Shown piece after piece: positions 24,801 through 27,800 of a stretch of DNA of 64,000 nucleotides. Every line of letters starts with the position of its first letter. The stretch's first letter is position 1. The DNA is from Escherichia coli. GTDB lineage: Bacteria; Pseudomonadota; Gammaproteobacteria; Enterobacterales; Enterobacteriaceae. Position numbers: made by a program. Location: assembly GCF_003018255.1 (NCBI RefSeq), contig NZ_CP027440.1. The stretch is one strand, 5' to 3'.

Positions 24801-27800
24801 ACATAGAAGGCACCGGCAAAAATTACGCTTTTCGTAATGGTGAATATGTCGATGCGTATTATATGGCGCGGGTGAAGTAAGATAGTGCCCTTTTTCTGAG
24901 ATGGAAAAAGGGTGTCATTCAAAATCTGCATACCTTCCTTTAAGGTATTTATTTGCCCAATACATATATTGAGATTTAACTCATAATTACTTCCTAAAGT
25001 GTAATATTTTATTTTTTAATATATACGCCTACAATTTCCTGGCGTAAATAAATAACAATTAACAAGCATAATATTGCCATTGATAAAATAGCATGCCATA
25101 AAAGGACTTTTCAGGGATGAGTAATATTGTTTACCTGACAGTAACGGGAGAACAACAAGGAAGCATCTCCGCAGGTTGTGGGACTTCTGAGTCTACAGGT
25201 AATCGCTGGCAGAGCGGGCATGAGGATGAAATATTTACATTCTCACTCTTAAATAGTATTACTAATACGGGGCTTGGTTCACAGTTCCATGGTATAACAT
25301 TTTGTAAATTAATTGATAAAAGCACTCCATTATTTATTAATTCCATTAACAATAATGAACAGTTATTTATGGGATTTGACTTCTATCGAATAAATAGATT
25401 TGGCAGATGGGAAAAGTATTATTATATACAACTAAGAGGCGCTTTTTTATCGGCTATTCATCACCAGATCTTTGAAAACCAACTGGATACAGAAACAATA
25501 ACTGTTAGTTATGAATTTATCCTCTGCCAACATCTTATCACTAACACCGAGTTCAGCTATTTGGCACTCCCTGAAAATTATAACCGCTTGTTTTTACCAA
25601 ATTCAAAAAACAAAACAAATAATGGTTTAAAAACGTTAAACAGCGAAGCTGTTGGCAGGCTACTTGCTGCTGGTGGCGTATACAATGGGAACATTGAAGG
25701 TTTCAGAGATACTGCGGAAAAACTGGGTGGAGATGCAATCAAAGGCTATGATCAAATACTAAATGAAAAAACAGCGGGCATAGCGATAGCAACAGCATCT
25801 ATTCTTTTAACAAAGCGTTCTAATGTTGATACATATACAGAAATAAATAGTTACTTAGGCAAACTTAGAGGTCAACAAAAACTTCTTGATGGTATAGACA
25901 TAATAGAAATAATATACATTAAGAGACCTTCAAAAGACTTAGCTAACTTACGAAAGGAGTTTAATAAAACTGTAAGAAAAAATTTTCTTATCAAACTTGC
26001 AAAAACCTCCGAAGAATCTGGAAGATTCAACGCCGAAGACCTTTTAAGAATGAGAAAGGGCAATGTTCCTCTAAATTATAATGTTCACCATAAACTATCT
26101 CTAGATGATGGTGGTACTAATGATTTCGAAAATTTAGTATTAATCGAAAACGAACCATATCATAAAGTTTTTACTAACATGCAATCACGAATAGCTAAGG
26201 GAATATTAGTAGGTGAAAGCAAAATCACTCCCTGGGCCATTCCATTTGGCTCAATTTATCCTCTCATGAAAAATATTATGGAACCCACAAAATGATGACT
26301 AAAACCCAAATAAATAAATTAAAAAAAATGATGAATGATTTAGACTATCCATTTGAAGCACCGCTCAAGGAATCATTTATTGAAAGTATAATCCAAATAG
26401 AATTTAATTCTAATTCAACTAATTTCCTGGAGAAATCATGTAATGAAGTTAGTATTCTTTTTAATAATCAACCTGATTATCTTACTTTTTTAAGAGCAAT
26501 GGATGGATTCGAAGTTAATGGATTACGATTATTTAGCCTCTCGATTCCAGAACCTTCAGTTAAAAACCTTTTTACCGTAAATGAATTTTATAGAAATAAT
26601 GATGATTTCATAAACCCTGATCTACAAGAACGGTTAGTGATCGGGGATGATAGCATTTCAATATTTACTTATGACATTAAAAGTAACTTTTTTGAAATTA
26701 GAGATAATATTGGCACCGAAAATATATTCAGTTCGTTTAGTGATTTCTCTTCATTCTTAAACGAAATCATGGACAGTTGTTCATAATAATCAAAAGGTAA
26801 CAAAAATCATTGTAAACCATGCCATCTTTTTAGAGATTACCAACAGAAAATTCCTTGTTCGAAACTTAGCAAATGCAAGCTATGGAAAAACTTACAACGG
26901 AACTACACTCCTTAAGTAAGATGGGCCGAAGACATGTAATCTCTATTTTAGCCGAAATAGCTAATGGCTATGATGATTTTAGTGACATGTTGATTTAGTT
27001 AGAATTTCACCCGAATCATAAGATTCTGATATCTTAAATAAGAAAATCCCGTTCGACGTTCTGAAAAAGAAATCACAAAATATTAGCAGATACTTATTTC
27101 GTGACTGTATATTATCCGATGAACTTTTTTCAAAACCAGCATTTAATAATATCTTTGACGAAGATGAACACGCCTTTTCTCAAAGTATAACGCAAGAATA
27201 ATAATATAACGCTCAACAATAATATTTATTATAATTATGATTACTTATCACGACGCATTCGCGAAAGCGAACCATTACCTTGATGATGCAGATCTCCCTG
27301 TCGTCATCACTCTGCATGGACGTTTTATCCAGGGCTGGTATTTCTGTTTCGAATCACAAGAATTTCTTGAATCTGGTGATGAGGCCGCGCGCTTAGCCGG
27401 TAACGCACCTTTTATTATTGATAAAGACAGTGGTGAAATTCATTCCCTTGGAACGGCAAAGCCGCTGGAAGAATATCTACAGGATTATGAAATAAAAAAG
27501 GCTACCTTCGGCTTGCCCTGACAATACGGCCCTCTTCCCACGAAGAGGGCCGCTAACCTTAATACCCCGCCGTTAAATCATCTACTGAGCGCGGGTCGGA
27601 TGCGCCGTACAACTCACCGTCAGGCCCAACCATAATGCTTTGTGTACTGCCCATCGCCTCTTTCAGCGCCACTTTCTGACCTTTTGCTTCCAGCAGCTTG
27701 AGCGTATCCGGGCTAAATCCTTTCTCGACACGCAGCTCATCCGGCAACCACTGATGGTGGAAACGCGGTGCATTGGTCGCTTCGGCGACATTCATACCAT

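Follow-up and report, generated by a model that had tools for sequence, protein, structure and literature searches.

Two decayed small genes from replaced toxin/immunity cassettes probably occupy the yrhA-yrhB interval of Escherichia coli

We describe the 450 bp that separate yrhA from yrhB in a 64,000-nucleotide stretch of Escherichia coli DNA (contig NZ_CP027440.1; we call the whole 64-kb stretch the window). This interval (26787-27236, between the end of yrhA at 26786 and the start of yrhB at 27237) is quite likely no true intergenic spacer but a pair of abutting small genes in decay, derived from effector/immunity cassettes that have been replaced. We name the relics psi-84 and psi-85 after the families of 84-amino-acid (aa) and 85-aa genes to which they belong, and we base this reading on homology, synteny, lesions and a neutral pattern of substitution. 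The original prediction for this DNA had pointed to 450 bp of AT-rich sequence, which is indeed there (30.9% GC), and to two short open reading frames (ORFs), here ORF1 and ORF2, proposed to be relics of earlier cassettes, with toxin tips and immunity genes both in mind, or else tiny genes. The four elements are as follows.

psi-84: 26788..27037, plus strand, relic of a gene of the 84-aa family; the long form of the yrhD frame
ORF1: 26882..26998, plus strand, truncated yrhD allele of 38 codons and a TAG; K-12 has 51 codons
psi-85: 27037..27197, plus strand, relic of a gene of the 85-aa family, ending at TAA TAA (27198-27203)
ORF2: 27119..27190, plus strand, chance ORF that lies out of frame across psi-85

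Two probable gene relics in the interval

We searched a profile hidden Markov model (HMM) of the 85-aa family, with 14 members, against all 2327 six-frame segments of the window. The sole significant match is at 27022-27198 (E 2.1e-10; the next best has E 1.8), and in four E. coli lineages the same profile gives E values from 5e-15 to 7e-12. The match covers positions 2-52 of 85, and positions 53-85 are absent. Psi-85 aligns without gaps to residues 1-54 of the Citrobacter 85-aa family, with 43-48% identity over 54 aa. It has AAT where the Citrobacter genes have their ATG start, with no alternative in-frame start, and it misses about 100 bp of the 3' part, corresponding to residues 53-85. The K-12 copy of psi-85 has an additional TAA at a Gln codon.

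For psi-84, a tblastx comparison with the Citrobacter portucalensis 84-aa gene (84a) finds 39% identity over 59 aa. The 84-family HMM matches the E. coli alleles with E values of 1.4e-12 (K-12), 1.7e-13 and 3.3e-14 (B2), covering profile positions 8-67 of 84. Within the six-frame set of the window, its two best matches are collinear, at 26761-26916 (E 0.0028) and 26870-26995 (E 0.094). The homology starts right after the stop codons of yrhA, 31 codons upstream of the yrhD ATG, and at the DNA level it spans the whole 84-aa gene. The start and approximately the first 5 codons are missing, the 3' end of yrhA standing there instead, and no in-frame start codon for psi-84 exists between 26761 and 26872. 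The copy in the window has two extra lesions, an additional A in the run 26871-26873, which causes a frameshift, and a TAG at 26996-26998. Among the alleles examined, the extra A is found only in the window and in its identical match (locus L001). The ancestral stop of psi-84 is the TAA at 27035-27037, which shares one base with the first codon position of psi-85, so that the two relics together occupy the interval from 26788 to 27197.

ORF1 lies inside psi-84. It runs from the ATG at 26882, one base off the start first given for it, to the TAG at 26996-26998, and it is the same gene as the uncharacterised K-12 yrhD (b4612), annotated as the 51-aa "protein YrhD": its peptide is collinear with that one, and the two intervals share 95% identity. 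Codon 39 is TAT (Tyr39) in K-12, TAG in the window and TGG in B2. ORF1 is therefore a nonsense-truncated allele of K-12 yrhD: the TAG at codon 39 means that the 51-codon frame is not intact in the window, where the frameshift lies upstream of it. RefSeq marks a sequence identical to the yrhD of the window as a pseudogene, "missing C-terminus". K-12 yrhD itself covers only the distal part of the 84-codon ancestral frame. In the 84-aa family, an internal Met stands opposite its ATG (EAMEDI in one, QAMEKL in the other). These alignments make yrhD the apparent C-terminal ~60% of what was once an 84-aa gene; the 51-aa gene of K-12 would be the remainder that was left open from this internal Met.

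ORF2 runs from the ATG at 27119 to the TAA at 27188-27190. Its frame differs from the one that matches the 85-family HMM, its length is well inside the shuffle expectation given below, and its end varies between lineages; in an alignment read by eye, the K-12-like allele continues into yrhB. ORF2 is a frame artefact, a chance ORF. We compared the longest stop-free run over six frames with 2000 dinucleotide-preserving shuffles of the interval. The longest runs in the interval are 66 and 59 codons, and the shuffle mean is 58 (P = 0.26). The ORF lengths are not beyond chance, and therefore they are unusable as evidence. Both peptides quoted for ORF1 and ORF2 in the original prediction are exact and, reading from the sequence, we likewise see no Shine-Dalgarno motif upstream of either ATG. 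The idea that these are relics of earlier cassettes holds for immunity-type genes and for ORF1, which is yrhD; it fails for toxin tips and for the ORF2 peptide, which is out of frame.

Neutral decay across E. coli lineages

We compared nine aligned alleles between lineages, calculating the ratio of nonsynonymous to synonymous polymorphism (pN/pS), and used the same strain pairs for yrhA and yrhB. yrhD has a ratio of 1.7-2.9, the 31 codons ahead of it 0.6-0.9 and the downstream frame 0.3-0.9. For yrhA and yrhB the ratio is 0.05-0.46 (0.20 for yrhA against the B2 alleles, and 0.05-0.41 for yrhB). The variable sites of the relics are spread evenly over codon positions, with 8, 5 and 5 at positions 1, 2 and 3 of yrhD. 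The lesions in yrhD are specific to lineages: TAG39 in the group of the window, a TAA at codon 23 in B2, and a change of the ATG to ATA in SF-468 and C25. Another variant, in E. coli O139:H1 W13-16 (locus L024, 1501-1958), is an in-frame 9-bp direct duplication (ATTTTAGCC) inside the yrhD frame. Both relics evolve neutrally. This substitution pattern, together with the multiple disabling alleles, disfavours the proposal that the short ORFs are tiny genes.

The interval is found in 3804 of 5426 complete E. coli genomes, at 91-100% identity and always on the chromosome; only 3 genomes are 99% or more identical to the window over the interval. In the plasmid collection, it matches nothing but mislabelled chromosomes. 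yrhB is found in 4068 of the 5426 genomes, and approximately 1358 have no yrhB altogether. The 3802 carriers of yrhD comprise 2798 K-12-like sequences (at least 99% identity), 520 at 95-99% and 484 at 90-95%. Among sampled members, from which the lesions are known, the 95-99% class has TAG39 and the 90-95% class is that of B2. Thus 1004 of the 3802 carriers (~26%) are not K-12-like at yrhD and belong to classes in which nonsense or start-loss alleles are seen among the sampled members. A blastn search of the 5426 genomes finds no intact Citrobacter-like copy of either gene.

The original prediction also held that K-12 has an IS1 element in place of the interval, which is wrong. In a K-12-like genome (locus L002), the IS1 is inside yrhA, approximately 130 bp upstream of the interval, and the whole 449-bp interval is kept together with the annotated 51-aa yrhD. 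The interval of the window is 95.1% identical to this one, with ORF1 collinear with the annotated yrhD. In three other genomes, E. coli AR_0369, PKF8 and YPE10 (loci L005, L028 and L029), an IS1 abuts yhhY and the island is deleted to differing points, which are 125 bp or 71 bp upstream of yrhB or within yrhB.

Counterparts in Citrobacter

We reached the Citrobacter counterparts via YrhA homologs and their genomic contexts. They lie in the same slot, between yhhX-yhhY and ggt, which in Citrobacter holds alternative Hcp-toxin cassettes and arrays of small genes. In Enterobacteriaceae, type VI toxins fused to Hcp (Hcp-ET) have a hot spot in this yhhY-ggt slot. Alignment to longer genes of the same slot, which had been proposed as a check on the relics, is thus found in other Enterobacteriaceae, with the 84-aa and 85-aa genes of Citrobacter. 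In three loci from C. portucalensis and relatives (L043, L044 and L045), the 84-aa gene 84a, of a family annotated as "hypothetical protein", overlaps the 3' end of a 370-aa Hcp-toxin gene (Hcp370) by 17 nt. In C. koseri, the 85-aa gene starts one base past the end of the gene call for a 417-aa Hcp toxin (Hcp417), in the order Hcp417, 85, frameshifted yrhB, a winged helix-turn-helix (wHTH) gene and ggt. In C. youngae, the 85-aa gene comes 20 bp after yrhA. The order yrhA, 85, Imm35 is seen in L038, L041 and L044, and the order 84, wHTH, 85, Imm35 in L043. In C. portucalensis (locus L036, 2341-3779), a YrhB/Imm35 homolog begins where an Hcp-Gln_amidase (PF15644) toxin gene stops. This suggests a glutamine-deamidase Hcp effector as the partner of E. 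coli yrhB, which would be its orphan immunity gene. Because members of the 84-aa and 85-aa families overlap an Hcp-toxin gene by 17 nt or start one base after one, and a YrhB homolog follows Hcp-Gln_amidase, we infer from gene position alone that both are families of immunity proteins. AlphaFold models, of moderate confidence, predict four helices for the 84-aa family (predicted local distance difference test score, pLDDT, 70) and a helix with a four-stranded sheet for the 85-aa family (pLDDT 74). The toxin tips of Hcp370 and Hcp417 have no Pfam domain.

The same loci offer several further observations. In C. koseri (locus L034, 3759-4098), a frameshifted yrhB homolog (MITYKKAINKANKYLYDADTPVVITLHGRF...) makes up the uncalled gap of 340 bp that follows the 85-aa gene, so that Citrobacter also has orphan immunity genes in decay. 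The 85-aa gene of L045 is disrupted within a poly-A run. In C. portucalensis GCA_029104065.1 (locus L038, 767-6120) and in L041-L045, the number of Hcp-toxin genes in the slot can reach two or three (370, 382 and 384 aa), with eight small genes (84, wHTH of 84-88 aa, 85, YrhA-family and Imm35) interspersed among them, and an unknown gene of 294 aa is always between yhhY and the first Hcp gene. At 2985-3030 of L043, the toxin/immunity junction has a short direct repeat: the codons that end Hcp370 (...IEVKIVKEQ*) and those that begin the overlapping 84-aa gene (MLKNSEVKLVKII...) are adjacent and alike in DNA, and the peptides they encode are similar. A recombination joint might be marked by this repeat.

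Alternative explanations

Several results weigh against two gene relics of the immunity type. The HMM matches of psi-84 in the window are individually weak, because the frameshift splits the relic, and it is other E. coli alleles that score strongly. Word-index, phmmer and blastn searches find, within Escherichia, no intact gene closely orthologous to either relic. The Citrobacter 84-aa and 85-aa proteins have no sequence relative in Pfam, NCBIfam, PADLOC or PDB, and their models have no significant Foldseek match in PDB. yrhD is intact in ~74% of the carrier genomes. A genomic SELEX (systematic evolution of ligands by exponential enrichment) table reports a site for RNA polymerase holoenzyme upstream of yrhD in K-12 (PMC3946193), which makes some expression of the K-12 allele possible. 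The last two points, together with the RefSeq name "protein YrhD" for the frame kept intact in 2798 of 3802 carriers, would also favour yrhD as a functional small-protein gene of 51 aa in K-12, with the allele in the window either recently inactivated or shortened yet functional. We consider this unlikely, given the pN/pS of ~1.7-2.9 between lineages, the even spread of variable sites over codon positions, independent nonsense and start-loss alleles, the lack of a Shine-Dalgarno motif, and homology to the 84-aa family that extends 31 codons upstream of an ATG that is an internal Met in that family. The 51-aa form of YrhD has no homolog outside E. coli among 1.84 billion representative proteins (phmmer), and we find no report of yrhD expression or function in the open-access literature. 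It is distinctly unlikely, too, that the relics are not inert, through a 51-aa YrhD that is partly protective against Hcp370-type toxins, or through relic DNA that serves as a substrate for recombination. By the AlphaFold model, the K-12-type YrhD would correspond to the last three predicted helices of the four-helix protein. If this were true, the protection would concern Hcp370-type toxins from Citrobacter or Salmonella competitors, and relic homology would let incoming Hcp-ET cassettes recombine into the yhhY-ggt slot.

A fragment of a toxin tip followed by an orphan immunity gene is the usual arrangement of orphan modules in Rhs loci and in contact-dependent inhibition (CDI) loci, and by this precedent the interval could be the displaced 3' end of an earlier Hcp toxin gene ahead of orphan yrhB. 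One stop-rich frame has a locally raised alignment score against the Hcp417 tip of C. koseri (z 4-6), but this frame has 8 stops, and the match has long gaps and falls in the middle of the toxin rather than at its end. The yrhD frame scores below the shuffle mean against the Hcp417 tip (P = 0.71), tblastx of the interval against four Hcp-ET loci matches the 84-aa and 85-aa genes only, and neither tblastx nor Smith-Waterman alignment against the four Hcp-ET tips finds significant similarity in the interval. As psi-84 and psi-85 fill 26788-27197, there is no room for a third relic, and we regard a toxin-tip origin as extremely unlikely. A plain stretch of non-coding AT-rich DNA, either spacer or regulatory (an H-NS-bound leader or a yrhB promoter), in which all ORFs are chance, would agree with ORF lengths within chance expectation, with ORF2, which is indeed a chance ORF, with the lack of a terminator between yrhA and yrhB, and with the neighbouring yhhZ/yrhA region being in the list of H-NS-bound "promoter islands" of K-12 (PMC3661553). 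We find this very unlikely as an origin, since chance cannot account for two independent profile matches to genes that are syntenic in Citrobacter. A present role as leader is compatible with relic origin, and so it concerns current use and is no rival for the origin of the interval.

Genomic neighbourhood

The local gene order is yhhX, yhhY, yhhZ, yrhA, the interval, yrhB, and ggt on the minus strand. The features that flank the relics are as follows.

yhhZ: 25117..26295, plus strand, effector gene now present at the locus, an Hcp-HNH nuclease toxin fusion of the Hcp-ET1 type
yrhA: 26292..26786, plus strand, intact gene of 164 aa, NCBIfam YrhA family (E 6e-37), whose start overlaps the yhhZ stop
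spacer: 27198..27236, plus strand, 39 bp of AT-rich DNA ahead of yrhB
yrhB: 27237..27521, plus strand, intact gene, Pfam Imm35 (E 8e-22)

yhhZ matches Pfam T6SS_HCP (E 5.5e-11), with a weak HNH match, and NCBIfam VI_effect_Hcp1; RefSeq labels it a tssD/Hcp1 family effector. Its probable cognate immunity gene is yrhA, while yrhB is an intact orphan immunity gene (Imm35). The literature describes E. coli YrhB as a chaperone-like protein. In E. coli SF-468 (B2; locus L004, 1331-2509), the annotation of yhhZ (tssD) is that of a pseudogene, with a stop inside the gene, and yrhA and yrhB are intact. In GC content, the interval resembles yhhZ (34.6%) and yrhA (28.3%), and it differs from yrhB (44.6%) and from the average of the window (51.2%). 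The yrhB ATG (27237), preceded by the letters ATTTATTATAATT, also lacks a recognisable Shine-Dalgarno motif, and its translation may rely on an unstructured A/U-rich leader. A contig of Tannerella forsythia ATCC 43037 (contig050, 439 bp; locus L014) carries the C-terminal half of a YrhB that is 98% identical to the E. coli protein, which is probably assembly contamination.

Scans of the interval find no terminator-like site between yrhA and yrhB, and promoter-like sites no more frequent than chance. Since there is the SELEX site for RNA polymerase and the listing of the yhhZ/yrhA region among H-NS-bound promoter islands, low-level transcription of the interval, perhaps for yrhB, is plausible. 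Rfam covariance models have no match in 26787-27236 at E <= 1. The only match, to the plant snoRNA snoR69Y inside yrhA (26586-26682), is sub-threshold (28.7 bits, with a gathering score of 45) and is regarded as chance in AT-rich coding DNA.

Proposed history

From the gene orders and lesions, we infer the following sequence of events. The ancestral array was probably an Hcp-toxin gene, the 84-aa gene, other small genes, the 85-aa gene and yrhB. An incoming Hcp-HNH/yrhA pair would have replaced the old Hcp toxin gene as far as the first codons of the 84-aa gene that was its partner. Left without their toxins, the 84- and 85-family genes would have lost selection and decayed, while yrhB stayed intact. 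In this decay, psi-84 presumably lost its start, psi-85 its start and ~100 bp, and the psi-84 of the window then gained the frameshift and the TAG. Most likely, the DNA today is an AT-rich leader or spacer upstream of yrhB and nothing more.

One candidate that we rejected is a 106-aa ancestral fusion of yrhD with the downstream frame of 59 codons, as the Citrobacter matches show two separate genes. With this fusion as query, a word-index search and a full phmmer search of the 1.84 billion representative proteins return only E. coli fragments and two repeat-protein artefacts. Loci reached via YrhB homologs in Serratia, Pantoea, Pectobacterium, Providencia and Yersinia have no similarity to the interval, and profiles of the YrhA and wHTH (83-88 aa) families have no match in it. 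In the Pectobacterium locus, the YrhB homolog is within a CDI orphan array.

The yhhZ-yrhB island would thus record, in layers, no fewer than three cassettes of Hcp toxin and immunity gene (HNH/YrhA, Hcp370-type/84 and Hcp417-type/85), and beyond those it also holds the Gln_amidase/Imm35 orphan yrhB. The analysis points out two unnamed candidate immunity families, with their toxin tips in Citrobacter. As an apparent open remainder of a dead immunity-type gene, yrhD calls for caution before it is treated as a bona fide small protein without expression data.

Comparison with known systems

Orphan or displaced immunity genes are known from polymorphic toxin loci, in the "polyimmunity" arrays of Rhs, CDI and type VI secretion systems (T6SS). 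The relics share several features with these arrays: they are small genes downstream of a toxin/immunity pair, their homologs are paired with other toxins elsewhere, they are stacked at a recombination hot spot, and some members are intact (yrhB/Imm35) and others decayed. Unlike those arrays, the interval has pure immunity-type relics without a toxin-tip fragment, both are pseudogenes, and neither is in a named Imm family. Another established class is that of the Hcp-ET effectors, which have ETI immunity genes downstream (Ma et al. 2017, in the summary given by the review PMC6730261). The locus agrees with this class in being headed by an Hcp-HNH (Hcp-ET1-type) gene followed by its immunity gene, and at this slot in Citrobacter there are Hcp fusions to different tips, with a small gene after each. 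It differs in that the ETI proteins which the review names include neither the 84-aa and 85-aa families nor their decayed copies in E. coli. We view the relics as an ordinary example of a known phenomenon, one expected in polymorphic toxin loci, and what is new is modest, an origin for yrhD.

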